From an uncultured Eubacteriales bacterium (GTDB lineage Bacteria > Bacillota > Clostridia > Acetivibrionales > CAVYEU01): a DNA stretch of 64,000 bases. The DNA is taken from NCBI GenBank assembly GCA_963767415.1, contig CAVYEU010000095.1:2959-66958 (forward strand). The letters are read 5' to 3'. Below are positions 8,665-57,454 of the stretch, piece after piece. The notes under the pieces are model-generated. The model was not told the DNA's origin. It made no database searches and saw nothing but the letters and a program-made list of their open reading frames with translations. Position numbers and translations under genes: made by a program. Every line of letters begins with the position of its first letter. The stretch's first letter is position 1.

Positions 8665-11600
8665 TCAGTTAATGTATATTTTCCCTGATTCAGATTCCTT
8701 ATTTGAGTTAAAATTATTAAATGTCACAGACAAGAAAAGTTTCAATCTATTTAATTGATTTACCTCGCTTGCGCCTGGATCATAGTCAATTGCAGTTATA
8801 TTTACGTTTGGATATTTTTCTTTTATCTTATTAAACATACCTCTTCCAGTTATATGATTTGGCATGCAAGAAAATGGCTGCATGCAGATTATATTATTTA
8901 TACCCTCTTCTAGAAATTCAACAACCTCAGCTGTTAGACACCATCCCTCTCCATAAGAATTGCATGTAGATAAGATATCAGATATATAGCCAGCCAAATC
9001 GGATATCTTATGGATATTGCGAAATCTTGAACTTCTGTTTAACTCTAGCATAATTGGTTTCATAAAATACTCTATGACTTTAATAATAGTATTTCCTAAA
9101 ATAAGATCCTTCTTTGCTCCACGAAGTTGCTTGAAATCTTGTATGCTAGAATAGGCACAATAGAGGAAAAAGTAAATGAACTCTGGCACCACAACTTCAA
9201 CACCTTCATTTTCTAAAAACTCAATTATTCTATTGTTTGCGGCAGTATTATATTTCAAATAAATCTCTCCAGTAACTCCAACTACAGGTTTTTTGATCTT
9301 TATGTACTCAAGAGCCTCAAAATCAAGGATTATTTGTTTTATATTCAGTTTAAAATATCTAAAACTTTCTTTACTTTCTAAATCATTACAGCATTTCTTT
9401 ATCCACTTATCCAAGAGTTCATTCGTAGATCCTTTTATTTTTTCATATGGACGAACAGCAAGTGATAAACGCATTAATAGATCCCCATATAGGAAAGCCA
9501 TGATACACCTAATCACAAGTTTAATGGTTATCTTAAATCCGGGGTTCTTTTCTAAACCTGAAAAACTGATTGGGAAGACAGGAACTTCGTCATAACCTGC
9601 ATCAAATAAAGCTTTTCTTACAGTTCCAGTATAATTTGTAAATCTGCACCCCCCGCCAGATTGATAAAACATAATTGAGGTATTATGTAAATCATATTTT
9701 TTTGATTTTAGTGCAGTTAATATTTGACCAACTATAATTATAGCTGGTAAGCAAAGATCATTATTAACATACTTTAAACCCTCATCCAAAACTTCTCTAT
9801 CTGTATTTTGCAATAGCTCAACATTATAATTAGAGTTCTTTAAAACTGAAGCCAAAAGCCTAAAATGTATTGGAGCCATTTCTGGAATCAGAATTGTATG
9901 CGATTTTTTCATTTCTTTTGTAAATCTTATTATCTTTCTTGGCTTTTTTGGGTCTTCTAATATATCTTCATTTCTATTTTTATCATTGATTACTGCCTTT
10001 AATGATCGTATTCGTATTTTGATAGCACCCAAGTTTTTTATCTCATCAATCTTTATAATAGTGTAAATCTTATTCTTGCTTGTTAAGATTTCTTTTGCCT
10101 GCTCAGAAGTAATCGCGTCAAGCCCACAACCAAAAGAGGTTAACTGAATAAGGTCAAGATCTTTCATATCTCTTACAAAGCTTGCTGCAGCATATAACCT
10201 GGAATGGTACATCCATTGGTCAATAAATAACGTTGGTCTATCAACCTTAGCTAAATGGCTTACCGAATCTTCGGTGAGAACCGCTGAACCCAATGATTTT
10301 ATGAGGCTTGGTATTCCTTGATGTATTTCAGGATCAAGGTGATACGGCCTGCCACTAAGCACAATCCCTGACTTTCCAGTAATTCGTAAGTAATCTAAAA
10401 CCCTTTCACCTTCTTGTCTTATTTCAGCTTTAAACCTGCTACTCTCTAAAAAAGCTGATTCTACTGCATTACTAACCTCTTTTTGAGACACTCCAAATCT
10501 ATTAAGTGTATTATAAAGATTTTCTATTAGCTTTTTAATATTAGTAAAGGAAAGAAACGGATTTAAATATAGAACCCCTTCTTGATTCATCAAATCTATA
10601 TTATTTTTTATAACCTCTGGATAACATGCTACCATTGAACAGTTATAATTGTTACTTGCTTCGTCGAACTCTTTTACTTCATAAGGTACGCACGGATAGA
10701 ATATAGTTTTAATTCCTTTTCTTACAAGGGAAATTATATGCCCATGGGCAAGTTTGACAGGGTAGCATACTGTATCTGATGGGATTGTCTCAATCCCTAG
10801 TTCATATATTTCTTTTGAAGAATCTGGCGAGAGTTCTACTCTAAATTTTAAGTATGTAAAAAAAGTATACCAAAACGGATAATTCTCATACATATTTAGA
10901 ACCCTTGGGATACCTATTATCCCTCTTATTCCCTCATCATTTGAAAGTGGTATATATGAAAAAAGTCTTTTTAATTTGTACTCATAAAGATTAGGAACCT
11001 CATTCGATTCTTTATTGATTGATTCTCCTCTTTCACACTTATTACCAAAAATTAATTTATTCTTGCCATGTAAGTTCATAATGGTAAGTAAACATCGATT
11101 GTTACATCTTGAACACCTTGTATTTTCAGTTGAATATGAAAAATTTGATAATTCATTCTTCGATATTAAAGTCGAGGGACACCCGTCCTTGTATTGTTCC
11201 TTAGCTAGTATGGCAGCTCCAAAGGCACCCATTAAACCTGATATATCTGGTCTGATCACATCTTTGCCTGATATAAGCTCAAAACACCTTAATACTGCAT
11301 TATTATAAAAAGTTCCTCCTTGAACGATAACTCGTTCGCCTATTTCATCAGAATTTCTTAGTCTTATTACCTTATTTAGTGCATTTTTAATAACAGAGTA
11401 CGATAGCCCTGCTGAAATATCTCCGATTGTTGCTCCATCTTTTTGAGCTTGTTTAACTTTAGAGTTCATAAAAACTGTGCACCTTGTCCCTAAGTCAATA
11501 GGACTTTTAGCAAATAATGATTTTTCAACAAATTCTTCCAAATCTATGTTTAATGAGTTTGAAAATGTCTGTAAGAATGAACCACAACCAGATGAGCATG

Positions 11601-26185: not shown

Positions 26186-26920
26186 CTATTTTTTAAAATA
26201 CTCCTTAATTCCTTCAAAAATTGCAGTAGCTACTTTGTCCTGGTACTCTCTTGTTACAAGCAATTTCTCTTCATTTGGGTTAGATAAAAACCCGCATTCA
26301 ACGATTGAGATTATTGCCTTATTATTATTCAAAATGATTATCGGTTCCTTTTTTTCTAAAGCAGTTCGTTTATTATTTGGATCAACTGATCTTTTTATCG
26401 AATCTTGTAAACATAAAGCGAGCCTTTGACTTTGTGGTGAATTTGAGGGATAAAACGTTTGAGCTCCACTATATTTACCTTCAGGAAATTTATTTAAATG
26501 TATACTTACAACAATATCAGTTGCTTCATCGTCCATCATTTTTTTCCTTCTCAATAGATCTTGTTTCCTTTTTTGAACTATTCCCTTTGTTTCTGACTGG
26601 TATTCTAATCTATCTTCTTCTCTAGTCATTAAAACTTTATAATTTTCAGTAGTTAATAAATCCCTTAGTCTTTTTGCAATATACAAGTTTACATCTTTCT
26701 CTTTAAGTCCACTAAAGTCACTCACTGCTCCCGGATCTTCCCCTCCATGTCCAGGATCAATTAACACTATTTTGGATTTAATTTCGGTATTTGTAGTTAC
26801 TGCTGATGAAACATCATGAATAAACTCTATTCCATACAGAACTAAAGATAATAAGATGATAAGTAACGTAAATATAACTCTATTCTTCTTAAAAATTAAG
26901 ATCATACTCTCATACCTCAT
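26186..26920 (-). CDS. cwlD: N-acetylmuramoyl-L-alanine amidase, CwlD-like (germination-specific)
   Basis: Signal/TM, then Amidase_3 motifs (IVLIDPGHGGEDPGA...ADIVVSIHLN...IIVECGFLSNPNE). Confidence 0.8.
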   Translation of the reverse strand: MRYESMILIFKKNRVIFTLLIILLSLVLYGIEFIHDVSSAVTTNTEIKSKIVLIDPGHGGEDPGAVSDFSGLKEKDVNLYIAKRLRDLLTTENYKVLMTREEDRLEYQSETKGIVQKRKQDLLRRKKMMDDEATDIVVSIHLNKFPEGKYSGAQTFYPSNSPQSQRLALCLQDSIKRSVDPNNKRTALEKKEPIIILNNNKAIISIVECGFLSNPNEEKLLVTREYQDKVATAIFEGIKEYFKK

Positions 26921-26993: not shown

Positions 26994-27133
26994 GCAAAGC
27001 AATAGAGAGGCAAGACAAGACAAGGGAGGTGGAGTGACAGGGGACGGTTCTTTGACACACATGCATGTGTGTCAAAGAACCGTCCCCTGTCACTCCACCT
27101 CCCTTGTCTTGTCTTGCCTCTCTATTGCTTTGC
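26994..27133. repeat. perfect 140-bp palindrome (70-bp arms), GC-rich
   Basis: GCAAAGCAATAGAGAGGCAAGACAAGACAAGGGAGGTGGAGTGACAGGGGACGGTTCTTTGACACACATGCAT and its exact reverse complement, centred at 27063/27064; verified base by base. It overlaps the last codons of capD. Confidence 0.9.
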
Positions 27134-28957
27134 GCAAGTATAACTTGGAACAATAAGACTTATATACTCCATTGCCTGGTCGGAATTTGTCATAATTTTT
27201 TCTTTAAGTTCTTCTATTTCATGTCTTAAAAGCCCTAAATCTGTAAGTATTGGTTTTGCAACAAATATCTTATTATTCTTTGTTTTCCCTAAATCCTCTC
27301 CTTCAATCACTAATTCTTCATATAGCTTCTCTCCTGGTCTAAGTCCAGTAAACTGTATTTCAATATCATCCGTCTTAAATCCCGAGAGCCTAATCAAATT
27401 TTTCGCCAAATCATATATTTTAACTGGCTCGCCCATATCAAGTACAAAGATTTCTCCTCCTTTTGCCATTGCACCAGCTTGTACAACAAGTTGGACAGCC
27501 TCACATATAGTCATAAAAAATCTAGTTATATCTGGATGAGTTACTGTTACAGGACCACCATACTCAATCTGTTTTTTAAATAAGGGAATTACGCTTCCGC
27601 TACTTCCTAGAACATTGCCGAATCGGACCGCAACAAATTCGGTCTTGCTATGCCTATTTAGTGCTTGTATTATCATTTCTGCTACTCTTTTTGTAGCTCC
27701 CATGATATTGGTTGGATTAACAGCTTTGTCAGTTGATACTAAGACAAACTTTTTTACCCCATATTTATCAGAACACTCTGCTAAATTTTGTGTACCAAAG
27801 ACATTATTTCTTATAGCCTCTGTAGGGTTTAATTCCATTAATGGCACATGCTTATGCGCTGCAGCATGAAATACTACATCAGGATTCAATCTTTCAAATA
27901 TATCGTCAATCCTATGCTTTTCTCTAATATTAGCTATTTTCGCATCCAATTTCAAGTTTGGATACTTGCACAACAACTCGTTTTGTATTTCAAATACATT
28001 GTTCTCATTATTATCCAGAATGATTAGTTGCTTTGGGTTAAATGATGCTATTTGTCTACAAAGCTCAGAACCTATAGAGCCACCACCACCAGTCACCATT
28101 ACGACTTGATCTCTCAAATATGATGATATCTCATCAATATCTAAATCCACAGGCTCACGTAACAGGAGATCTTCAATGTCGACATCTCTTATTTTTTGTA
28201 TAACAACCGATTCGTCTATCAATTCTGACATAGACGGAAGAATCTTGACCTTGCAATACGTTTTTGAACATTCACTATAAATCTCATTTATATCCCGGTT
28301 GCTAGCTTTTGGCAATGCGATTATAACTTCACTTATCTTTAGATCTTCAATAACATGCAGTATATCATTACTGGTGCCAACAATTGGCACTCCATTTATT
28401 AGTTTTCCAACCTTGTATTTGTCATCATCAATGATCGCGATAGGTTTACTCATAAGCTCGTGATGCGCTTTTAATTCTTTAATTATTGCAGCTCCTGCAT
28501 CACTTCCTCCAATTATAAGTATCCTTTTATAATTACCAAAAGACCCTATCTGCTTAAGTCTAATTCTTCTAAACACTCTATAAGCAAATCTTACTCCTCC
28601 CACTAAAAAGATATCTACTAAAAAGGCTATTATAAATATACTTCTTGGTATATAAATTCTAGAAATGAAAATATAACTAATAACAATAGCATTACTAACA
28701 AAAGACACCAAAACTATTGTTACCAGTTCAAATATCCCTGCATATTGCCATAGACTGTTGTATAGTTTGAACGCTAAGAAACAAATTATTTTTATAACAG
28801 TTGCAATCAATAGTATTTCAAAAAATGAATTATGGAATTCCTCAGGGATACTCCAAAATGAGAAATCAAACCTTATTAAATATGATATACAAATTGAAAT
28901 ATTAATAAGCAGAATATCTAATAATATCAATAACTTTGTTCTTATCTTATGTCTCAA
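27122..28957 (-). CDS. membrane-anchored polysaccharide biosynthesis protein CapD/PglF-like (NDP-sugar 4,6-dehydratase)
   Basis: 611 aa; N-terminal TM helices; two Rossmann regions (ILIIGGSDAG.., VMVTGGGGSIGSEL); CapD-like length and layout. Confidence 0.85.
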   Translation of the reverse strand: MRHKIRTKLLILLDILLINISICISYLIRFDFSFWSIPEEFHNSFFEILLIATVIKIICFLAFKLYNSLWQYAGIFELVTIVLVSFVSNAIVISYIFISRIYIPRSIFIIAFLVDIFLVGGVRFAYRVFRRIRLKQIGSFGNYKRILIIGGSDAGAAIIKELKAHHELMSKPIAIIDDDKYKVGKLINGVPIVGTSNDILHVIEDLKISEVIIALPKASNRDINEIYSECSKTYCKVKILPSMSELIDESVVIQKIRDVDIEDLLLREPVDLDIDEISSYLRDQVVMVTGGGGSIGSELCRQIASFNPKQLIILDNNENNVFEIQNELLCKYPNLKLDAKIANIREKHRIDDIFERLNPDVVFHAAAHKHVPLMELNPTEAIRNNVFGTQNLAECSDKYGVKKFVLVSTDKAVNPTNIMGATKRVAEMIIQALNRHSKTEFVAVRFGNVLGSSGSVIPLFKKQIEYGGPVTVTHPDITRFFMTICEAVQLVVQAGAMAKGGEIFVLDMGEPVKIYDLAKNLIRLSGFKTDDIEIQFTGLRPGEKLYEELVIEGEDLGKTKNNKIFVAKPILTDLGLLRHEIEELKEKIMTNSDQAMEYISLIVPSYTCAKQ

Positions 28958-28995: not shown

Positions 28996-29586
28996 CTATA
29001 GGGAATGTTGTTTCCCCTCAACTACATCTTTAGCTTGTGCCACATGGAATATAGTAATTAATAGTATTTTCAAATCAAACGCAAATGAATAGTTTTTTAC
29101 ATAATATTTATCATACTCAACTTTTTGTTCTATTGGCAATTCATCTCGGCCGTTAACTTGAGCCCAACCAGTTATTCCGGGAATTACAATATTTACCCCT
29201 TCTATATCCCTCAGGTTTATCAAATCATATTGATTATATAATGCGGGACGTGGACCGACAAAGCTCATTTCTCCCTTTATGATATTTATTAGCTGCGGAA
29301 GCTCGTCCAAACTTGTTTTTCTTAAAAAATTTCCTATAGACGTAATGTAATCCTTAGAATTCTCAAATTTATGTGTCGGAATATCCCGCGGTGCTTCAAT
29401 ATACATTGTTCTAAATTTAATTATGGTAAACTTATTTTTATTTTTTCCAATCCTGTACTGCAAGAAGAAAATAGACCCTTTTGATGTCATTTTGATTGAA
29501 ATACCAATTATTATAAATACAGGTAGTAGAACAACTAACACAACTATACCTAATATTAGATCAAAACATCTTTTCATAATTGGCAC
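28996..29586 (-). CDS. undecaprenyl-phosphate sugar phosphotransferase (small PglC/WbaP-C-terminal 'Bac_transf' type)
   Basis: 196 aa, single N-terminal [11 protein letters not shown]...[21 protein letters not shown]. Confidence 0.8.
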
Positions 29587-29616: not shown

Positions 29617-30792
29617 TTAAGATTCAGCAATAATTAAATTTTTAATCATATCTACTTGTCTTTTCAGAATTGGTTTTTGATCAAAACACTCTAAAACCAA
29701 TTCTCTAGCTTTTTTTCCCATTTGTTCACGAATACGTGGGTTTTCAATTAAATATTGTATTTTGCCTGCCAAGCTTAGATGGTCACGAACTGGAACTAAA
29801 AATCCTGTAATATTGTCAATTACTTCTTCTCTACATCCTCTAATATTAGTCGCAACTGTACACTTTGACATACTCATTGCTTCAAGCAAAGATAAGGGCA
29901 TACCTTCTCTATGAGACGGTAGTGTAAATATATCCATAGTAGCTAAAAGTTCAGGTATGTTCGATCTGTCTCCAGTAAAAATCACTTTATCTTGCAGGTT
30001 GTATTTTTGTATCAGTCTATCAATTTCAATTTTAACTCCATCGCGATCGGATTGTAAAGTGTCTCCTACAAATAAAAATATAACATTTGTGTATCTTTTT
30101 GTAATTTCATTTGCAGCTAATGCCAATTCAACAAATCCTTTTTCTCTAACCATCCTTCCTACAATCCCTACAACTACATTATCTAAAGGTATATTCAATT
30201 CTTTTTTTATTTGAGTCAAGCTCTTTTTTAAGAGGACAGTATCTATATTATACTTGTCAACATCTATACCGTTTCCGATAAATGTTATTTTTTCTTTGGG
30301 AATAATCTTCTCTTCAATTGCAGTTTTATAATCTTCAGAACTTACAGTAAAGACATAATTACAAATATATCCTCCGATTTTTTCAATCAACATAAATATT
30401 TTCTTTTTTAGATGACTCATTTCATCATGGAAATAGAATCCATGCGCAGTATAGACAACAACAGGCACTTTTGCAATAAAGGCTGCAATGCGACCTATAA
30501 TCGCTGCTACTGGTGTATGCAAATGAATACAGTCAAATTTTTCTTGTTTTAAGTATTTTGTTAGTCTCCAAATCGAAACAATATTTTTAATAGGAGAAAC
30601 TTTTCTTGCAATCTCAATATTTTTGATCTTATATCCTAATTTTTTCAGATTCTCTGACCTTTCATCGTGGCTGCAAAGTATTGTAACATCAAATTCGTAT
30701 TTTGTTAACTCATCTATCAACGGTAATAAAATATTTTGAACAGTAAACCCCACAGCACACATCTCTAATATCTTAATTTTATCTTTCTCCAT
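29617..30792 (-). CDS. glycosyltransferase family 4
   Basis: GT4 C-terminal EX7E-type region (PSHREGMPLSLLEAMSMSKCTVATNIRG); 391 aa. Confidence 0.8.
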   Translation of the reverse strand: MEKDKIKILEMCAVGFTVQNILLPLIDELTKYEFDVTILCSHDERSENLKKLGYKIKNIEIARKVSPIKNIVSIWRLTKYLKQEKFDCIHLHTPVAAIIGRIAAFIAKVPVVVYTAHGFYFHDEMSHLKKKIFMLIEKIGGYICNYVFTVSSEDYKTAIEEKIIPKEKITFIGNGIDVDKYNIDTVLLKKSLTQIKKELNIPLDNVVVGIVGRMVREKGFVELALAANEITKRYTNVIFLFVGDTLQSDRDGVKIEIDRLIQKYNLQDKVIFTGDRSNIPELLATMDIFTLPSHREGMPLSLLEAMSMSKCTVATNIRGCREEVIDNITGFLVPVRDHLSLAGKIQYLIENPRIREQMGKKARELVLECFDQKPILKRQVDMIKNLIIAES

Positions 30793-30804
30793 GTTAATCC
30801 CTAT

Positions 30805-30812
30805 CCCCCCCC
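30805..30812 (-). repeat. G8/C8 homopolymeric tract in the 5' UTR of the GT4 gene
   Basis: CCCCCCCC on the plus strand (GGGGGGGG in the mRNA) 13-20 nt upstream of the GT4 ATG, next to an AGGGA SD. G/C runs are otherwise rare in this AT-rich window. Confidence 0.8.
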
Positions 30813-30943
30813 TACAGCATTTTTTATTAATTCCATATCTCCTCCTTCCAATTTTGATTATACCTTAAAAAGTTGAAGGCATCAAAATTATATAATATAC
30901 TATAGAAACAGTAATATACTTAAAAATAAAAGGAGAATCATTT

Positions 30944-33058
30944 ATGTTACCTGACTATTTTGGGTTATTTTTTAAGATCATTGTCTTATTTTTTGGATTA
31001 GTTCTGGTATGGAAAACATTAGGTTTAAGAATCATATCTAATAATAAAATTGGTATCGTTGAAAAATGGTGGTCAGCAAAAGGATCACTTAAAGAGCAGA
31101 TAATAGCATTAAACGGTGAAGCCGGCTACCAACCTGAACTATTAAGAGGAGGTATCCACTTTCTTACTCCGCTAAAATATAAGGTTCATATCTGCCCTCT
31201 TGTTACAATACCTCAGGGTCAGATGGGGTATGTTTTTGCTAGAGATGGAAAACCTTTAGATGCTACTCAAACATTAGGTAAGGTTGTTCCTAAATGTAAT
31301 AATTTTCAAAATGTTCGTGAATTTTTAGAGAATGGCGGTCAAAGAGGCCCTCAAAGAGGTATTATTCGCGAGGGTACCTACGCATTTAATTTAGCCCAAT
31401 TTATCGTAATTACAGAGGATAAAGCACATTATTTACCTATGGGAACTCATGCAGAAGAAAGCACTATAAATAAAATGGTTGAAGTTCTAAGAGAAAGAGA
31501 AGGATTCACGCCAATTATTATAAAAGGTGCAGATGATAAGGTTGGAGTTGCTACAGTACATGATGGACCATCCTTAAATAAAGATGATATAATTGCTCCT
31601 ACTGTTGGAGATTCATCTTTAGATTTAGAAAAGTATCATAACAATTTTCAAGACCCTGAGAAATTTTTACTTGCAGGTGGGTTTAGAGGAAGACAGTATC
31701 AGGTATTAGTAGAAGGAACATACTTTATTAATAGACTTTTTGCTACCATCGAACTTATTGATAAAACGGTTATTGATGTAGGTTTCGTCGGGGTTGTTGT
31801 TTCTTATATTGGACCAAAGGGTCTAGATTCTACAGGGGATGAATATAAACATGGCGAGCTGGTTGATACAGGATGTAAGGGTGTATGGCAAAAACCATTA
31901 ATGCCTGGCAAATATGCATTTAATACCTATGCAGGTAAAATTGTCAGAGTTCCAACAACTAACATTATTCTTAAATGGATTAGTAATCAAAGTGGTAATC
32001 ATAAATATGATGAGAACTTAAAAGAGGTTAGCTTAATTACAAAGGATGCTTTTGAACCGTCCCTTCCATTATCAGTTGTAATGCATATAGACTATAAAAA
32101 AGCTCCCCTTGTTATTCAAAGGTTTGGTGATATTAAGATGTTAGTAGATCAAACGCTAGATCCTATGGTGTCAGCATATTTTAAAAACATTGGTCAAACT
32201 AAGACTTTGATACAACTACTACAAGAAAGAAACGAAATACAAGGTATCGCATCAAGAGAAATGAATGTAAAGTTTGGTCACTATAATCTTGAGTTTGAAG
32301 AGGTGTTAATCGGAACACCATCATCATCAGACGCAGATAAAAAAATAGAGCAGATTCTTGCTCAACTGCGTGACAGGCAAATTGCATTAGAGCAGGTAGA
32401 AACATACTCACAGCAACAAAAAGCTGCAGACAAAGAAAGAGAGCTAAAAGAATCTGAAGCAAAGGCTGCACAGCAAAGGCTTTTAACCGAATCAGATATC
32501 AATATTCAAATTCAAAGTAATCAGGGAAAAGCTGAATACCAAAGATCACTGCAAGAAGCAGCAAAGATCAAGACAATCGCTGAAGCAGAGGCTTCTAAGA
32601 TTAAGACTATTTCATTGGGAGAAGCTGCTAAGATCAAAGCCATAGCTGAATCAGAAGGCGAAAGAGAAGCAAGGGTTGGTATCGGTAAAGCAATCGCTAT
32701 TGAAGAACAAGTGAAGGCATATGGAGGTTCGAGATATCAGCTGGTTCAAGACATTATGAGCAAATTTACTGCTGCATTAGAAAAATCAAAGATTGATTTA
32801 GTGCCCAAAACAGTAATTAGTATGGGTTCTAACGAAAATGGAGGAAGCATTGTAAATGCATTTGAGATCCTTCTAGGACTTATTGTAAACGATAAATTAA
32901 ATATTCAGCTTGATTCTAATGAAGGGAAAAAGGAGAATGAGGAAATTAAGACCATTAAAAACTCAATTTTAGGATCAATTAATGCGAAGAAAGGTACGCT
33001 TCAAAAGCTTAGCACTGAGGAATCGTATCAGGAAGCAAGTACGTGTACTGAAAAATAG
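30944..33058 (+). CDS. flotillin-like SPFH/Band-7 domain membrane protein with EA-rich coiled coil
   Basis: N-terminal TM; C-terminal EAAKIKTIAEAEASKIKTISLGEAAKIKAIAESEGE...YGGSRYQLVQDIMSKF resembles the FloT/YuaG C-terminus. At 704 aa it is longer than typical FloT. Confidence 0.55.
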   Translation: MLPDYFGLFFKIIVLFFGLVLVWKTLGLRIISNNKIGIVEKWWSAKGSLKEQIIALNGEAGYQPELLRGGIHFLTPLKYKVHICPLVTIPQGQMGYVFARDGKPLDATQTLGKVVPKCNNFQNVREFLENGGQRGPQRGIIREGTYAFNLAQFIVITEDKAHYLPMGTHAEESTINKMVEVLREREGFTPIIIKGADDKVGVATVHDGPSLNKDDIIAPTVGDSSLDLEKYHNNFQDPEKFLLAGGFRGRQYQVLVEGTYFINRLFATIELIDKTVIDVGFVGVVVSYIGPKGLDSTGDEYKHGELVDTGCKGVWQKPLMPGKYAFNTYAGKIVRVPTTNIILKWISNQSGNHKYDENLKEVSLITKDAFEPSLPLSVVMHIDYKKAPLVIQRFGDIKMLVDQTLDPMVSAYFKNIGQTKTLIQLLQERNEIQGIASREMNVKFGHYNLEFEEVLIGTPSSSDADKKIEQILAQLRDRQIALEQVETYSQQQKAADKERELKESEAKAAQQRLLTESDINIQIQSNQGKAEYQRSLQEAAKIKTIAEAEASKIKTISLGEAAKIKAIAESEGEREARVGIGKAIAIEEQVKAYGGSRYQLVQDIMSKFTAALEKSKIDLVPKTVISMGSNENGGSIVNAFEILLGLIVNDKLNIQLDSNEGKKENEEIKTIKNSILGSINAKKGTLQKLSTEESYQEASTCTEK

Positions 33059-41208: not shown

Positions 41209-43746
41209 ATGTCTGCAGCTTCGGTAAGTACTACTGGTGATAGTGTGATTAGCGGCACTTATTCGAAAAAATTTAGAATCGGTGGCATGGGCAGTGGCAT
41301 GGATACGGATGCAATTGTAAAACAGTTAATGCAGGCTGAAAGTATACCATTAGACAAATTAAAACAAAAACTGCAACTCAATAAATGGAAGCAGGATGAT
41401 TACAGAGGTATAACCAGTTTACTACAAGGAGTGCAAAATACTTACTTTAATTCTTTAAACCCTGCAACTAATATGCTATCTCAATCAAGCTATATAGAAT
41501 ATACTTCTACAAGCACCGATCCATCAACTGTTACGATAACTGGAAGCTCTTATGCTGTTCCAGGGAGTCATACTATCCAAATAAATAATCTTGCAACGGC
41601 TGCGACAGATTCAAGTACAGCAACAATTACAAAGAATATTGTTGCGTCATCAAGTGCAAACTTTGCAAATGCTGTAAATCAAAACTTATACTTAGATCTC
41701 GACGGGGTACGGAAGCTAATAACAATTGATTCTAGTGTAATAGACATCCCTTCTTTTCAAACTGCAATAGATAATGCAGTTGGATATAATAAAGTTGTTG
41801 TTAGTGATGCGGGTGGTGGGATATTACAGTTTAATACAGTAAGTGGAAGTAATGTTAATAAAATTATCCTTTCGTCGGGAACTAATGATGCATTAATGAC
41901 AAATTTAGGATTTTCAGGTACTGATAATTTAAGTAATAGACTAAACACATTTAATTCTCTTGAAACTATAGCAAATAAAATGAGTAATCCCTTTTCATTT
42001 GATTCTAATGGGAATGTTGCTTTAAGCATAAATAATACAAATTTTACGTTTAACCAAGGTACGACATTAGTAAGTATGATTAATCAAATTAACAGTAGTA
42101 ATACAGCAGGTGTAGTACTTCAATATGATGATATTAATGATAAGTTTAATTTTATTTCAAAACAAATGGGAACAGGTATAAACATTCAATTAATTGAAAC
42201 TGGAAGTAATTTTTTACAGGGCGCAAATTTTAGTAATATTCAAGGTTTGGGTGTTGCTGATACTAAAGGATATTCCGGTGAAAGTTTTAGAGTAATAATT
42301 GATGGAGTTCAACAAAATATTCAGCTTATTTCGGGGGATTATGTTGATGCCGATGACCTTGTCACAGATTTGCAGACCAAAATTCAGAATGCATTTACTA
42401 ATAATACTGTTAATGTAAGTCAAACTAATGGCATAATAAATATTTCACTAGCGACTGGTGGTGGAAGCAATATAAGTATTGGAAATCCGATATCAGGAAC
42501 TTCTGCACTTTCAAAGTTGAAGCTCAGTGCAAATTATACAGCAGGAAAAGATGCATCGGTTGTTTTAGATGGGCAAACACTGGTTAGGAGTACAAATTCT
42601 TTTACTACAAGTGGAATAACATATAATTTACTTAAAGAAGGTCAGCCTTCTCAGACTGTTACTTTGACCCAGGATGTTGATTCGGTTTATAATAATATTA
42701 AAAGCTTTATTGATCAATATAATAGTATGATAGATACAATAAATAAAAAAATATCTGAAGATTACCACAGAGATTATCAGCCTCTTACAGATGCTCAAAG
42801 GGCAAGCATGAATCAGGAAGATGTAAAAAAATGGGAAGAAAAAGCTAATGAAGGATTACTTAGAAATGATCAACTATTATCAAATATAGTTACGAGTGTG
42901 AGAAATGCTATGTATGATCCAATATCAGGGTATAATGGCAATATATCAAATATCGGAATAACAACAGGGGCATATCAAGATAAAGGAAAACTAAATATAG
43001 ATGAACATAAGCTAAAGCGAGCTATTGAGAATGATCCTGATGGAGTAATGAATTTATTTGTAAAACAATCAGAGGATTATCCATACTATTTAAATTATTA
43101 TTCTGTTACTGGGATATCAACTGCACAGAATGCGCTAACTGACTATACTGCTTCTAATAAAAGCTTTAATGTAACTATAGATGGTAATGCTCAAATAATA
43201 ACATTGAATGGCAGTTATTCTACATATAGTGATCTCACTTCAGCTCTTCAAACTAAGATTCAAAGTGCATTTTCTAATACTCCAATATCAGTCACAGCTG
43301 ATTCTGAAGGGTTTTTAACTATTTCTTTAAGTACGACAGGAAGTGATATTAGTTTATCCGATCCTACAAGTGGGGCAAGTGCGTTGTCCGATTTAGGATT
43401 TCCTTCGTTATCAACCAGCGGAAGAATTGCAAGATATAATGAAGAAGGATTAGCATATAGGTTATCTGATATAATTAATGATGCGGTAAGAACTTCAAGA
43501 GACCGTGATGGTAATAAAGGCACATTAATTGAAAAAGCAGGTTTGGTAGGAGATGCAAGTGAAACTACAAACATATTTTATAAAATTATGTCGCATGAGA
43601 CACGAGATATATCAGAAATGAAAAAAAAATTAACAGCTAAAGAAGATTCGTATTATAAAAAATTTACAAATATGGAAGAAGTAATTTCTCGGATGAGTGC
43701 TCAGAGTAATTGGATTGCTCAACAACTTGGTGGAGGAACACATTAA
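41209..43746 (+). CDS. fliD: flagellar filament capping protein FliD (hook-associated protein 2), unusually long with a triplicated internal module
   Basis: N-terminal FliD motif (GMGSGMDTDAIVKQLMQAESIPLDKLKQK...WKQDDYRGI) and a FliD_C-like end. Three ~75-aa paralogous modules (...LQT(A/K)IQ.AF(T/S)N...IS(L/S)..G(S/G)(N/D)IS...SG.SALS.LGF) sit at roughly aa 160-235, 363-440 and 655-730. Confidence 0.85.
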   Translation: MSAASVSTTGDSVISGTYSKKFRIGGMGSGMDTDAIVKQLMQAESIPLDKLKQKLQLNKWKQDDYRGITSLLQGVQNTYFNSLNPATNMLSQSSYIEYTSTSTDPSTVTITGSSYAVPGSHTIQINNLATAATDSSTATITKNIVASSSANFANAVNQNLYLDLDGVRKLITIDSSVIDIPSFQTAIDNAVGYNKVVVSDAGGGILQFNTVSGSNVNKIILSSGTNDALMTNLGFSGTDNLSNRLNTFNSLETIANKMSNPFSFDSNGNVALSINNTNFTFNQGTTLVSMINQINSSNTAGVVLQYDDINDKFNFISKQMGTGINIQLIETGSNFLQGANFSNIQGLGVADTKGYSGESFRVIIDGVQQNIQLISGDYVDADDLVTDLQTKIQNAFTNNTVNVSQTNGIINISLATGGGSNISIGNPISGTSALSKLKLSANYTAGKDASVVLDGQTLVRSTNSFTTSGITYNLLKEGQPSQTVTLTQDVDSVYNNIKSFIDQYNSMIDTINKKISEDYHRDYQPLTDAQRASMNQEDVKKWEEKANEGLLRNDQLLSNIVTSVRNAMYDPISGYNGNISNIGITTGAYQDKGKLNIDEHKLKRAIENDPDGVMNLFVKQSEDYPYYLNYYSVTGISTAQNALTDYTASNKSFNVTIDGNAQIITLNGSYSTYSDLTSALQTKIQSAFSNTPISVTADSEGFLTISLSTTGSDISLSDPTSGASALSDLGFPSLSTSGRIARYNEEGLAYRLSDIINDAVRTSRDRDGNKGTLIEKAGLVGDASETTNIFYKIMSHETRDISEMKKKLTAKEDSYYKKFTNMEEVISRMSAQSNWIAQQLGGGTH

Positions 43747-43782: not shown

Positions 43783-44211
43783 ATGGTTTCGCATAATGCA
43801 TATTTCCAATACCAAGAAAATATCATAAATACATCCCGCTCTGAAGAGCTGGTGCTTATGCTGTATAATGGACTTGTTAAGTTTATTATGCAGGCACAAA
43901 AACATTTAGAGGAAAAAGATATTCAAAGTGCACATGAAAAGATTCTAAAAGCACAAAATATTGTAAAGCATCTTAAGGATACATTAGATATGAAGTATGA
44001 AGTTTCAATAAATCTAGATTTAATGTATGAATATATGTATAATAGGTTGATAAAGGCTAATATTAAAAAAGATAAAAAGATATTAGACGAAATGCTTGGA
44101 TTTGCTAAAGAGTTTAGAGATACTTGGTCAAATGCTATGAAATTAGCAAGGATGAAACAAAGTCTTAACCAGAATATCCAACGTGAGCCCAGACTGGAGA
44201 TAAATAGGTGA
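43783..44211 (+). CDS. fliS: flagellar export chaperone FliS
   Basis: GGAGGGGG RBS; FliS-like four-helix pattern (LVLMLYNGLVKFIMQAQ...LMYEYMYNRLIKANIKKD...EFRDTW). Confidence 0.85.
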   Translation: MVSHNAYFQYQENIINTSRSEELVLMLYNGLVKFIMQAQKHLEEKDIQSAHEKILKAQNIVKHLKDTLDMKYEVSINLDLMYEYMYNRLIKANIKKDKKILDEMLGFAKEFRDTWSNAMKLARMKQSLNQNIQREPRLEINR

Positions 44212-45477: not shown

Positions 45478-46620
45478 ATGAGAGACTATATACCATACGG
45501 GACACAATGGATTGATGAAGATGATGTAGAAGCGGTGATCGATGTCTTGAAAAGTGATTATTTGACACAAGGGCCTAAAATAGAAGAGTTCGAGGAACAG
45601 GTTGCTAACTACATCGGGGTAAGATATGCTGTAGCTGTATCAAGTGGTACAGCTGCATTGCATGCAGCGTGTTTTGCAGCAGGCTTGAGCCCAGGTGACG
45701 AGGTTATTACGTCCCCTACAACATTCGCAGCCTCAGCAAACTGTGTATTGTATATGGGAGCAAAACCTGTATTTGCAGATATTGATCCAAAAACGTACAA
45801 CATTGATCCTAATGAGATTAAGAAAAAAATTACAGCATTCACTAAAGCAATTATCCCTGTGCATTTCGCAGGTAACCCTTGCAATATGGATGAGATTTTA
45901 AGTATCGCAAAAGAACATAATTTAGCTGTTATAGAAGATGGAGCCCATTCGATTGGAGCGACATATAAGGGGAAGAAAATCGGAAGTATCTCGGGATTGA
46001 CAACACTTAGTTTTCACCCTGTTAAGCATATTACGACGGGTGAAGGCGGAATGATTTTAACTAATGAACAAAATTCTTATAAAAAGTTATCTCTGTTTAG
46101 GACTCATGGGATTACAAGGGATGAAGAATTTTTGCACAAAAATGATGGTCCATGGTATTACGAGCAGCATATCCTTGGGTATAACTATAGACTTACAGAC
46201 ATTCAAGCTGCTTTAGGTATAAGCCAACTAGCCAAACTCGGTAATTCTCTTGAAAGACGGAAAGTGTTGATCAGGATGTACAATGAAGGATTTAGAAGTC
46301 TTAAGAACATTATTTTGCCCACAGAAAACAATGATGGGTTATCCGCATGGCATTTATATGTCATTCAGTTAAGGCTAGAGAATTTGGAATCTTCAAGAAA
46401 ACAAATATTTGATAAGCTAAGGAGTAAAAATATTGGTGTAAATGTACATTATATTCCGGTATATTATCATCCGTACTATATGAAATTAGGCTTTAGTCGT
46501 GGCATTTGTCCAAATGCAGAAAAATACTATGAGCAGGCAATAACTCTACCATTGCATCCGAAGATGACAGATGATGATATTATGTATATAATTAATTGTG
46601 TAAAGGAAGTAGTAACCTAG
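45478..46620 (+). CDS. pseC: DegT/DnrJ/EryC1/StrS family PLP-dependent sugar aminotransferase, PseC-like (UDP-4-amino-4,6-dideoxy-N-acetyl-beta-L-altrosamine transaminase)
   Basis: YIPYGTQWIDEDDVEAVIDVLKSDYLTQGPKIEEFEE... N-terminus typical of PseC/DegT; Schiff-base lysine region SFHPVKHITTGEGG. Confidence 0.7.
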   Translation: MRDYIPYGTQWIDEDDVEAVIDVLKSDYLTQGPKIEEFEEQVANYIGVRYAVAVSSGTAALHAACFAAGLSPGDEVITSPTTFAASANCVLYMGAKPVFADIDPKTYNIDPNEIKKKITAFTKAIIPVHFAGNPCNMDEILSIAKEHNLAVIEDGAHSIGATYKGKKIGSISGLTTLSFHPVKHITTGEGGMILTNEQNSYKKLSLFRTHGITRDEEFLHKNDGPWYYEQHILGYNYRLTDIQAALGISQLAKLGNSLERRKVLIRMYNEGFRSLKNIILPTENNDGLSAWHLYVIQLRLENLESSRKQIFDKLRSKNIGVNVHYIPVYYHPYYMKLGFSRGICPNAEKYYEQAITLPLHPKMTDDDIMYIINCVKEVVT

Positions 46621-46647
46621 GAGGTATAACAACCCGGAGGAGTGCAT

Positions 46648-47571
46648 ATGAACATTCTAGTTACAGGTGGTGCTGGATTTATTGGCCGTTGGGTTGTAAA
46701 AAGACTATTGGATGATAGCCATATGGTATGTGTTCTTGATGATCTTTCAAACGGTAGCTTAGATAATATAAAAGAGTTTAAGGATAATATTAAATTTATT
46801 CATGGCGATATGAAAGACAAAAGTCTGCTGCAAACAATATTTCAAACAAAATATGACATATGCTATCATTTGGCTGCAAGTATAAATGTTCAAGACAGCA
46901 TCGATGACCCCTTAAAAATATTTGAAAATGATACTATTGGAACGGTGAATATTCTGAACTCATGTAAAGAATCAAACACAAAGATTGTTTTTATGAGTAC
47001 ATGCATGGTTTATGATCGTGCTTCTTTTGAGTCTGGGATTACAGAAAAACATCCAACAAAGCCAGCCTCACCATATGCTGGAAGCAAGCTAGCAGCTGAA
47101 AATATGGTATTATCATACTGGTATGCGTACAAGCTGCCAATTGTTGTAGTTCGCCCATTCAATACATATGGTCCTTTTCAAAAATCAAGTGGTGAAGGTG
47201 GAGTTGTTTCAATATTTATAAAAAGACATTTAGAAAATAAAAAACTCCTAATATATGGTGACGGGTTACAAACTCGAGATTTATTATATGTTGAAGACTG
47301 CGCAAGGTTTGTAATTCTAGCTGGATATTTAGACTCTGTTAATGGAGAAATAGTAAACGCAGGTCTTGGCAAGGATATAGCTATTAATGATCTAGCGATG
47401 ATGATTTGCAACAACACTGCCCAAATAGAGCATATAAAACACATTCACCCTCAAAGTGAGATACCAAAGTTACTGTGTGATTATAAAAAAGCCCAAAAAC
47501 TATTAAACTGGACTCCACAGGTTTCATTAGAAAAAGGAATCGAGCTTACAAAATCGTGGATTAAAGAGTAG
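46648..47571 (+). CDS. NAD-dependent epimerase/dehydratase family protein (short-chain NDP-sugar epimerase)
   Basis: ILVTGGAGFIG Rossmann fold and YxxxK (YAGSKLAAE); GGAGGAG RBS. Confidence 0.75.
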   Translation: MNILVTGGAGFIGRWVVKRLLDDSHMVCVLDDLSNGSLDNIKEFKDNIKFIHGDMKDKSLLQTIFQTKYDICYHLAASINVQDSIDDPLKIFENDTIGTVNILNSCKESNTKIVFMSTCMVYDRASFESGITEKHPTKPASPYAGSKLAAENMVLSYWYAYKLPIVVVRPFNTYGPFQKSSGEGGVVSIFIKRHLENKKLLIYGDGLQTRDLLYVEDCARFVILAGYLDSVNGEIVNAGLGKDIAINDLAMMICNNTAQIEHIKHIHPQSEIPKLLCDYKKAQKLLNWTPQVSLEKGIELTKSWIKE

Positions 47572-53768: not shown

Positions 53769-54743
53769 TCAATCCTTTTCTCTTAATTCCAGTATTTCGG
53801 CTTCAGATATATTTAATATATTTATAATTTCATCTATAGATCTACCTAAGTTTATTAACTTTTTTGCGATTTCATATACCGTTTGTTTTTTCCCTTCTTC
53901 TATACCAAACCTCTTTCCTTCTTCTATACCAAACTTCTTTCCTTCTTCTATACCAAGCTTCTTTCCTTCTTCTATACCAGACTTCTTTCCTTCTTCTATA
54001 CCATCTTTTTTCCCAACTACATAAGTAGACTCATGCATACTTGCCTGATAATGCATATTTTCTATATAACGTTTATAATCAAGTAAATCTTCTTTAGGTA
54101 GCTTCATTTTATTTAATTTCTCTCGTGCCTCGCTTAGCCCTTTTGCACTAAATTCTTCCTTTATCTCTTCATTTTTCAAAAAATAGATCCATTCATCTAA
54201 CGAATCTTTTGCTATATCGTTAAACCTGTTTACCTTTATAAGATAATATTCTGGATATATTTGATAAACAAAATCTTTTGAGTATAACTCTTGCTGTCTT
54301 GCATTTAATTCCAATTCATCATCAAAGTGCAATCCTTTGAATTTTGTTGTACCATGATATACATAATCAAGTCCATGCCCTAGGTCAAAAAATACTACAC
54401 TTATTGAGTATATTTTTTTTACACTTGAATAGGGATCGCTTTCCCTCATGTACTCTGTTATTGACTTGGAAACTCCAAATAGAATCCTTGATAAAAAATC
54501 AAATTCGTTATCTACTTGAATTTCTACAATTATTAACTCCTTGTCTTCGTTTTCTACCATTATATCAACTCTATTGTATTTATCGTCCTTATCTTCTTTA
54601 TTACTTTCACTCTCTATTATATTCACAATTTTTAGATTTTGACGTAATACAACACTTAAGAACCCTTCCAGAACCCCAAAATTCGCTTTACTTCTTAATA
54701 GTTTTTTTATTGCCCAGTCAAACCGTACCAGCTCTCTCTCCAT
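53769..54743 (-). CDS. Rpn/YhgA-like PD-(D/E)XK nuclease-family putative transposase (TIGR01784-like), paralog 1
   Basis: N-terminal PD-(D/E)XK core (RVDIMVEN..ELIIVEIQ) and a C-terminal G(I)EEGKK decapeptide repeat encoded by 30-bp tandem DNA repeats (53880-54010). Confidence 0.65.
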   Translation of the reverse strand: MERELVRFDWAIKKLLRSKANFGVLEGFLSVVLRQNLKIVNIIESESNKEDKDDKYNRVDIMVENEDKELIIVEIQVDNEFDFLSRILFGVSKSITEYMRESDPYSSVKKIYSISVVFFDLGHGLDYVYHGTTKFKGLHFDDELELNARQQELYSKDFVYQIYPEYYLIKVNRFNDIAKDSLDEWIYFLKNEEIKEEFSAKGLSEAREKLNKMKLPKEDLLDYKRYIENMHYQASMHESTYVVGKKDGIEEGKKSGIEEGKKLGIEEGKKFGIEEGKRFGIEEGKKQTVYEIAKKLINLGRSIDEIINILNISEAEILELREKD

Positions 54744-55003
54744 GACCTCTCTCCTACATTTATATTTTATTTAGTATTATATTTAAGTAAGTATAATTGC
54801 TATCTGATAGTATTATACTATAATTATTTTAAGATACGTTATAGTTATTTTTTTTTAATTGTTTTTTCTCAAACTCGTCCAGCCTAATTCAGTCTCTAAT
54901 ATGGTTTATGTACCTACAATTGCTTATCAATAGTAAAAACGCACCCCTTTGTTCTCCTTATTTTTTTTCAATTGCTGGGACAAAAGTGGGAGCAGGGGAA
55001 AAA

Positions 55004-56599: not shown

Positions 56600-57454
56600 T
56601 CATATACCGTTTGTTTTTTCTTCCCCTCCTTCTTCTATACCAAACTTCTTTCCTTCTTCTATACCAAGCTTCTTTCCTTCTTCTATACCAGACTTCTTTC
56701 CTTCTTCTATACCATCTTTTTTCCCAACTACATAAGTAGACTCATGCATACTTGCCTGATAATGCATATTTTCTATATAACGTTTATAATCAAGTAAATC
56801 TTCTTTAGGTAGCTTCATTTTATTTAATTTCTCTCGTGCCTCGCTTAGCCCTTTTGCACTAAATTCTTCCTTTATCTCTTCATTTTTCAAAAAATAGATC
56901 CATTCATCTAACGAATCTTTTGCTATATCGTTAAACCTGTTTACCTTTATAAGATAATATTCTGGATATATTTGATAAACAAAATCTTTTGAGTATAACT
57001 CTTGCTGTCTTGCATTTAATTCCAATTCATCATCAAAGTGCAATCCTTTGAATTTTGTTGTACCATGATATACATAATCAAGTCCATGCCCTAGGTCAAA
57101 AAATACTACACTTATTGAGTATATTTTTTTTACACTTGAATAGGGATCGCTTTCCCTCATGTACTCTGTTATTGACTTGGAAACTCCAAATAGAATCCTT
57201 GATAAAAAATCAAATTCGTTATCTACTTGAATTTCTACAATTATTAACTCCTTGTCTTCGTTTTCTACCATTATATCAACTCTATTGTATTTATCGTCCT
57301 TATCTTCTTTATTACTTTCACTCTCTATTATATTCACAATTTTTAGATTTTGACGTAATACAACACTTAAGAATCCTTCCAGGACCCCAAAATTCGCTTT
57401 ACTTCTTAATAGTTTTTTTATTGCCCAGTCAAACCGTACCAGCTCTCTCTCCAT
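56600..57454 (-). CDS. Rpn/YhgA-like PD-(D/E)XK nuclease-family putative transposase, paralog 2 (near-identical to 53769..54743 but with fewer 30-bp repeat units and an altered C-terminal end)
   Basis: Protein identical to paralog 1 over about 270 aa; the GIEEGKK repeat is shorter and the C-terminus reads GIEEGGEEKTNGI. Confidence 0.6.
   Translation of the reverse strand: MERELVRFDWAIKKLLRSKANFGVLEGFLSVVLRQNLKIVNIIESESNKEDKDDKYNRVDIMVENEDKELIIVEIQVDNEFDFLSRILFGVSKSITEYMRESDPYSSVKKIYSISVVFFDLGHGLDYVYHGTTKFKGLHFDDELELNARQQELYSKDFVYQIYPEYYLIKVNRFNDIAKDSLDEWIYFLKNEEIKEEFSAKGLSEAREKLNKMKLPKEDLLDYKRYIENMHYQASMHESTYVVGKKDGIEEGKKSGIEEGKKLGIEEGKKFGIEEGGEEKTNGI

Follow-up and report, generated by a model that had tools for sequence, protein, structure and literature searches.

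A poly-G tract of variable length inside a leader ORF ahead of a putative glycan operon: a candidate mutational expression dial

Phase variation of surface glycans through simple repeats has so far been described mainly in host-adapted Gram-negative pathogens. Repeats can act as promoter spacers, as in switches of the Neisseria porA/opc and Bordetella fim type, or from within a gene, as in Bacillus subtilis swrA, a motility regulator with an intragenic A8/A9 frameshift. The poly-G/C loci of Campylobacter jejuni comprise capsule, LOS and flagellar-glycosylation genes (PMC4965091; PMC11955535), and tracts of at least seven G or C serve there as the working threshold for phase-variable loci (PMC4965091); a screen of Moraxella catarrhalis, by comparison, left out tracts for which only 7 or 8 repeats had been seen, judging these too short for confidence (PMC7302503), and this calls for caution with the present tract. 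Here we describe a tract of eight G, and so of the slippage-prone length expected at SSR-mediated phase-variable loci (G/C of at least 7), that lies shortly ahead of a glycan gene cluster in a 64-kb stretch of DNA with a GC content of 32.5% (the window). We consider it a candidate mutational expression dial of a fairly ordinary kind, plausible but unproven. The tract and the genes behind it are as follows.

30805..30812, minus strand: G8 homopolymer (C8 on the plus strand), read from the sequence
29617..30792, minus strand: GT4 glycosyltransferase, 391 aa; its ATG at 30792 matches the N-termini of all close homologues
28996..29577, minus strand: small phosphoglycosyl transferase (PGT) of the PglC/WbaP-C-terminal type (Bac_transf), 193 aa, by domain match
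27122..28957, minus strand: CapD/PglF-like membrane-anchored UDP-sugar 4,6-dehydratase (Polysacc_synt_2), 611 aa, by domain match

Starting from the ATG at 30792, the gene order is GT4, Bac_transf, the CapD/Polysacc_synt_2 dehydratase and then a CwlD-type amidase; a 704-aa Band_7/SPFH gene with its start at 30944 diverges from GT4, and the tract lies inside the resulting divergent intergenic region of 151 nt. The initial annotation had placed the tract at the head of a GT4-PglC-CapD glycan operon, and domain matches confirm all three genes. The Pfam and NCBIfam matches of GT4, the PGT and the dehydratase stay below equivalog cut-offs, and the sugar roles are putative. By these matches, the trio joins a small monotopic PGT, a membrane-anchored 4,6-dehydratase and a GT4 enzyme, the make-up that characterizes a glycan initiation module of the PglC/PglF (bacillosamine-like) type. 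The operon itself lacks an aminotransferase; a DegT gene is found at 45478-46620. This DegT/PglE-type aminotransferase gene and that of an NAD-dependent epimerase/dehydratase (46642-47571) come directly after fliD (41209-43746) and fliS (43783-44211). The two enzymes could supply the amino-sugar steps missing from the GT4-PGT-dehydratase trio, and their position beside the flagellar cap and chaperone genes hints at flagellin glycosylation. The content of the window is that of a chromosomal core (murT/gatD, hrcA-grpE-dnaK-dnaJ, prmA, fliD, fliS); judged from these genes, the host is a motile spore-former, and it belongs to an uncultured lineage of spore-forming Bacillota that is probably environmental. 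Two further features of the window deserve mention. The spore-cortex amidase gene of the CwlD type (26186-26920), just 3' of the glycan trio, shows no detectable Shine-Dalgarno (SD) sequence at its annotated ATG (predicted duplex +2.1 kcal/mol), and its start may be mis-set, translationally coupled or leaderless. A paralogous pair of PD-(D/E)XK transposase-family genes (53769-54743 and 56600-57454) shares identical 22-nt upstream sequences, and the longest T runs of the window (T9 at 54848, 57559 and 57799) lie near it; the pair looks like a repeated mobile or duplicated element.

Re-reading the minus strand from 30815 to 30790 gives GTAGGGGGGGGATAGGGATTAAC-ATG, which reproduces the C8 at 30805-30812 of the plus strand and the leader sequence as first described, with 12 nt between the end of the tract and the GT4 ATG; a recoded form of the tract is GGAGGTGG. 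The rarity initially ascribed to the tract is real as well. It is the only G/C homopolymer of at least 7 nt in the 64-kb window, where the next-longest G/C runs are one C6 at 9649-9654 and eleven runs of length 5; among the other homopolymers are an A9 at 43621-43629 and T7 runs within 29-33 kb. Base composition predicts 0.021 (G) plus 0.032 (C), or about 0.05, runs of at least 8 nt, and the counts of G/C runs of at least 5 and at least 6 equal the base-composition expectation. The tract is unusual within this window (P about 0.05).

The initial annotation assigned the tract to the 5' UTR/RBS region of GT4. Its position shortly 5' of the gene stands, but the stretch is not a plain 5' UTR. An upstream ATG with a very strong SD had been overlooked, and it places the tract inside a leader ORF, of which the G's form codons 9-11. 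The signals around this ORF are as follows.

30801..30836, minus strand: leader ORF (uORF) from ATG 30836 to the stop TAG at 30803-30801; MELIKNAVGGG, 11 codons, with the tract as codons 9-11
30839..30849, minus strand: leader-ORF Shine-Dalgarno sequence GGAAGGAGGAG, with a predicted anti-SD duplex of -15.1 kcal/mol
30885..30857, minus strand: sigma-70-like promoter TTGATG-17-TATAAT, 10/12 consensus matches
30798..30802, minus strand: AGGGA, the weak SD assumed for GT4, which overlaps the leader TAG in the G8 allele

The leader ATG lies 44 nt upstream of that of GT4. Its SD is the strongest among the 30 starts scored in the window (predicted -15.1 against a median of -9.25 kcal/mol). The SD-to-ATG spacing is 4 nt, as compared with 5-12 nt for long ORFs with GGAGG in the window, and because this is shorter than for any such ORF, translation of the leader may be inefficient. 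The best promoter-like site comes before the leader ORF, with its end 45 nt from the tract, which would place the tract in the transcribed region; the scan used consensus only, and in this AT-rich stretch shuffled sequence yields matches of this kind no less often. At GT4 itself, the final 12 nt before the ATG offer a predicted anti-SD pairing of only -4.6 kcal/mol. The best anti-SD partner near the GT4 start is the G run, at a predicted -10.4 (G7) or -10.9 (G8) kcal/mol and 11-12 nt from the AUG. A search of the leader region for terminator-like sites returned none, and that for flanking inverted repeats yielded none that convinced, on which ground an invertible element was dropped from consideration.

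We computed and translated the outcomes of the leader ORF for tracts of G5-G13. In the G8 allele, the leader product is MELIKNAVGGG and the ORF ends at a TAG 8 nt before the GT4 ATG, overlapping AGGGA. In the G7 allele, it is MELIKNAVGGDRD, with termination at a TAA (30796-30794) 1 nt before the GT4 ATG. With G6, G9 or G12, the leader is in frame with GT4 and the predicted product is a fusion of 405-407 aa (405-406 aa for G6 or G9, equal to an N-terminal extension of GT4 by 14-15 residues). The predicted N-termini are MEKDK... for canonical GT4 and MELIKNAVGGGIGIN... for the fusion or for a -1 frameshift product. Neither of the two frames that occur among the available assemblies, G7 and G8, obviously silences GT4 by these computations.

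This arrangement bears on the mechanism first proposed for the tract, in which its length would shift either the distance from SD to ATG or the -35/-10 geometry of the operon promoter. The closeness of the tract to AGGGA (2 nt) and its location within the 151-nt divergent intergenic region speak for such an effect. However, AGGGA and the ATG both lie 3' of the tract, the 3' edge of which is fixed, and the spacing stays constant; G7 and G8 differ by just 0.5 kcal/mol in predicted pairing energy; and the sole good promoter match (30885..30857) is wholly upstream, with the tract downstream of its -10 box. A consensus scan finds no pair of -35/-10 hexamers that brackets the tract, as a promoter-spacer switch would have. 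We find this mechanism scarcely credible.

Does the length of the tract vary? Look-ups with exact proteins recovered four other assemblies of the same organism, 99.9-100% identical to the window nearby; those made with the neighbouring proteins (Band_7, PGT, CapD, FliS, GrpE) returned one informative contig, L086, along with control contigs. The four compare with the window as follows.

L002, Logan ERR11523659, 4.1 kb: G7; differs from the window by one SNP (29392 A->G) and the tract
L003, Logan ERR11748453, 1.2 kb: G7; differs by the tract only
L001, ENA ERZ25039473: G7; discounted as noisy, with many indels
L086, Logan ERR11523654, 3.7 kb: G8; differs by the SNP only (29392 G allele)

With the window included, three of five assemblies carry G7 and two carry G8, on unspecified platforms. 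Repeat number varies between near-identical strains, as at SSR-mediated phase-variable loci, with two lengths seen. Invariance across related strains, which the initial annotation named as evidence against a switch, is not what we find: G7 is present in L001, L002 and L003, and G8 in the window and L086. The only SNP among the clean assemblies, 29392 A/G, lies in the phosphoglycosyl transferase gene. The 29392-G background carries both lengths, and G8 occurs on both SNP backgrounds; since L086 (G8) and L002 (G7) share the G and the window (G8) has the A, these contigs indicate that tract length changed independently of the SNP. Two scans extended the search: JGI metagenome contigs, scanned with a pattern that allowed any tract of 3-15 nt, gave 0 matches, and the GTDB species representatives held relatives of at most 57% identity, this species not being among them.

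It might be argued that tract length is constant and that the difference between G7 and G8 arose when the homopolymer was miscalled during sequencing or assembly. On several sequencing platforms, no sites are more error-prone than long G/C runs, and the other runs and the window source are of unspecified platform. The G7 of L001 is unreliable, given the many indels and frameshifted genes of this assembly relative to the window; its name, contig_159093, is in the style of a long-read assembler, which we take to be Flye-like. Against a general miscalling of homopolymers, the three Logan contigs span 17 other homopolymers of 6-7 nt in all with zero other indels, and the tract is the sole indel in about 9 kb of clean comparisons. 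Another contig from ERR11523654, the run of L086, is 100% identical to the window across 5.4 kb, an A9 run included. Moreover, G7 comes from two different Logan runs and G8 from two different assemblies, and because Logan retains only 31-mers seen at least twice (PMC12424806), each tract length has at least two supporting reads. On this evidence we regard a technical origin, which might be one peculiar to G runs, as rather improbable.

The ends of these contigs show some peculiarities of their own. Position 1 of L003 (window 30836) starts exactly with the 31-mer made of 24 nt and G7, the first k-mer that is specific to G7 or longer; this is a weak hint at G6 reads coexisting in ERR11748453, for which a polymorphism at 30837 or a drop in coverage is an equally good explanation. 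The start position of L086 does not fit a tract branch in the assembly graph. The low end of L002, at window 29120, is right beside the first of two SNPs of L001 (29119 and 29107), which suggests that coexisting strains in sample ERR11523659 broke the de Bruijn graph there. Error-prone L001 is also without 30 nt at window 32559-32590 (gaps of 26 nt and 4 nt that lie 2 nt apart, a net multiple of 3), in the C-terminal part of the SPFH protein, which is repetitive and coiled-coil-like.

Taken with the observed G7/G8 polymorphism, the frames of the leader ORF lead us to tentatively favour, at somewhat less than an even chance, a model in which a slippage-prone tract in a strongly initiated leader ORF sets the leader frame and thereby grades translational coupling to GT4. 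A slip by a single G would shift the frame of the leader ORF and leave the GT4 frame, the promoter and the SD spacing untouched, and the frame would decide how far the ribosomes recruited by the strong upstream RBS read. With G(3n+1), such as G7, they would terminate at the UAA 1 nt before the GT4 AUG, which should give tight termination-reinitiation coupling; with G(3n+2), such as G8, termination at the UAG 8 nt upstream, on the weak AGGGA, should give looser coupling; and with G(3n), such as G6 or G9, ribosomes would read straight into GT4 and produce an N-terminally extended enzyme. GT4 translation would then change by degrees, in a heritable and reversible way; the tract would be a dial and not an ON/OFF switch, no frame would be fully OFF, and downstream genes would possibly be affected through GT4. 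Coupling would matter because the proximal SD of GT4 is weak compared with that of the leader (-4.6 vs -15.1 kcal/mol). What the sequences show is the tract, the leader ORF with its three computed outcomes, the SD strengths and the two tract lengths; translation of the leader ORF, a coupling efficiency that depends on frame, and frequent switching are what we infer beyond this. The phase-variation switch by slipped-strand mispairing that was first suggested thus survives in part: tract length does differ among near-identical assemblies, but the SD or promoter mechanism proposed with it is unsupported.

The same data can be read as a neutral hypermutable homopolymer, the length of which truly varies and for which GT4 initiates alone via the G run or AGGGA, leaving G7 and G8 phenotypically silent. 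The GT4 ORF is intact, with its canonical start, in all alleles. The tract itself is predicted to pair with the anti-SD at roughly the strength of a typical SD, near-equally for G7 and G8, and for this reason GT4 may initiate without the leader ORF. At every tract length, the leader RNA is essentially unstructured (MFE about -3 kcal/mol). Chance alone is also expected to give a few G/C runs of at least 8 nt in a genome of 3-4 Mb with this composition. The relatives point in the same direction. The 391-aa GT4 is a singleton 90% cluster in a collection of 15 billion proteins, its nearest homologues being about 60% identical, and both tract and leader ORF are absent from the nearest relatives at 55-60% identity. 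Upstream regions of 11 related loci, which include all those at 55-57% identity (L004, L005, L006 and L022), contained no G tract and no leader ORF. Because of this absence, selection for the arrangement is unsupported. What stands against neutrality is the SD of the leader ORF: stronger than any other scored in the window and placed just after a good promoter match, it is a source of ribosomes at the GT4 start that is hard to ignore. We judge the neutral reading unlikely, if far from negligible.

As an addition to the neutral reading, the leader ORF may be the decayed stub of a gene that once preceded GT4. In the relatives, GT4 is found mid-operon after other genes, and in the closest ones directly after a UDP-ManNAc-dehydrogenase-type gene. 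The leader (window 30801-30836) was compared with L088 768-840, L004 2667-2740 and L087 1127-1200. The G6-frame leader peptide MELIKNAVGGIGIN shows a weak likeness to dehydrogenase N-termini, MELYK...ISIVGLGYVG, with a crude null P = 0.014 for this one frame only; a negative PSSM score and the choice of the test with the data already in view both count against a relic. The fused-frame leader MELIKNAVGG[G]IGIN is likewise weakly like the N-terminus and the Rossmann GxGxxG start of such genes, for example MELYKGLLDKTDYISIVGLGYVG. The comparison hints at a deleted dehydrogenase-type gene of which the leader ORF would be the 5' stub, rather than at an evolved switch.

In another reading, the locus would be a classic ON/OFF frameshift switch, the real product being the fusion from ATG 30836 at G6 or G9 (405-406 aa), with G7 and G8 as OFF or low states. 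A strongly initiated ATG that comes into frame with GT4 at G6, G9 and G12 fits this reading, as would the coexisting G6 reads at which the 24 nt + G7 start of L003 weakly hints. The logic resembles that of Haemophilus influenzae licA, where repeat number aligns upstream starts with the ORF (PMC2212159). The homologues argue otherwise. All close ones begin M-x3-4-K-[LIV]-K-[VM]-L-Q-x-CAVGFTV, without an extension, and because they all share this N-terminus, ATG 30792 is taken as the canonical start, which leaves the tract outside the conserved coding sequence. No homologue aligns to the upstream extension, and the sole MELI-type extension, that of homologue P0021, was rejected as a conserved leader and put down to faulty gene calling, since it overlaps the dehydrogenase gene before it. 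An exact look-up of the G6, G9 and G12 fusion proteins (405-407 aa) in the 15-billion-protein collection found none of them, G6 or G9 occurs in 0/5 assemblies, and GT4 retains its own start and an SD-like G run. An ON/OFF switch is, on balance, very unlikely.

Structure of the RNA could provide yet another route from length to expression. At G8 or more, the tract and the GG of AGGGA might form a two-tier quadruplex that masks the ribosome-binding region of GT4, whereas G7 could not. With its G-quadruplex option, ViennaRNA gives an MFE of -3.1 kcal/mol for G7 versus about -10 kcal/mol for G8, G9 and G10, the predicted structure covering the tract and AGGGA. This threshold is a model prediction only. 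A quadruplex of two tiers with G loops of 1 nt is marginal, and any ribosome that translates the leader ORF would unwind it; in addition, the leader has no match in an Rfam search even at E <=10. We hold a quadruplex threshold to be highly improbable.

The coupling model can be carried further, to a three-state translational rheostat in which slippage cycles the locus through tight coupling, loose coupling and the N-terminally extended fusion. In an environmental Clostridia lineage, this would amount to phase variation by leader-ORF frame. Some reading into the GT4 frame could be added by -1 ribosomal slippage on the GGG GGG GGA UAG of the G8 allele. In this full form we consider the idea distinctly unlikely. 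In the set of full texts searched, nothing relevant came up for phase variation combined with translational coupling, upstream ORFs or Firmicutes, and a search for the run accessions gave no result.

If tract length tunes GT4 translation, then repeat-driven phase variation of surface glycans would extend to an uncultured, spore-forming Bacillota lineage. It would do so as a mechanistic variant, in which a repeat in a leader ORF alters translational coupling and both the gene and its promoter remain unbroken. Screens and gene callers limited to tracts 'in ORF' or 'in promoter' would misclassify such a locus. If the variation is neutral or technical, what remains is an ordinary homopolymer polymorphism.

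Among described systems, repeat-driven contingency loci at glycan genes come nearest to how this locus would work. The locus is not an intragenic frameshift switch of the C. jejuni or Neisseria lgt type, as the repeat lies outside the conserved coding sequence. With B. subtilis swrA it would share a homopolymer-based heritable switch in a spore-forming Firmicute; the swrA run is intragenic, whereas the tract here lies in a leader ORF ahead of glycan genes. The contingency loci of C. jejuni resemble it in having G/C homopolymers of at least 7 nt in an AT-rich genome, at genes of glycan biosynthesis, with lengths that differ by single G's between closely related cells or strains (PMC4965091; PMC11955535). 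Unlike here, the C. jejuni tracts are mostly in the regulated ORF and cause ON/OFF frameshifts; the tract of this organism, known from sequence alone, is in a separate leader ORF and never disrupts GT4. Closest in position and in graded output is M. catarrhalis uspA1, where a G(n) tract precedes the ORF by 29 bp (PMC7302503). There, too, a poly-G in the transcribed or upstream region shortly precedes the start codon, and expression is high or low rather than ON/OFF; the effect in uspA1 was measured on mRNA with 8-12 G, while the effect proposed here would be translational, via the leader frame. Closest in logic is H. influenzae licA (lic1), in which CAAT repeats separate the body of a glycan-modification gene from its upstream start codon(s) and their number decides the in-frame start (PMC2212159). 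The licA repeats are tetranucleotides inside the ORF, with one frame that gives no product. Here the repeat is a mononucleotide run, ATG 30836 is in frame with GT4 only at G(3n), and GT4 has its own ATG downstream of the tract; an upstream start in frame is not required, and no frame is predicted to be fully OFF.
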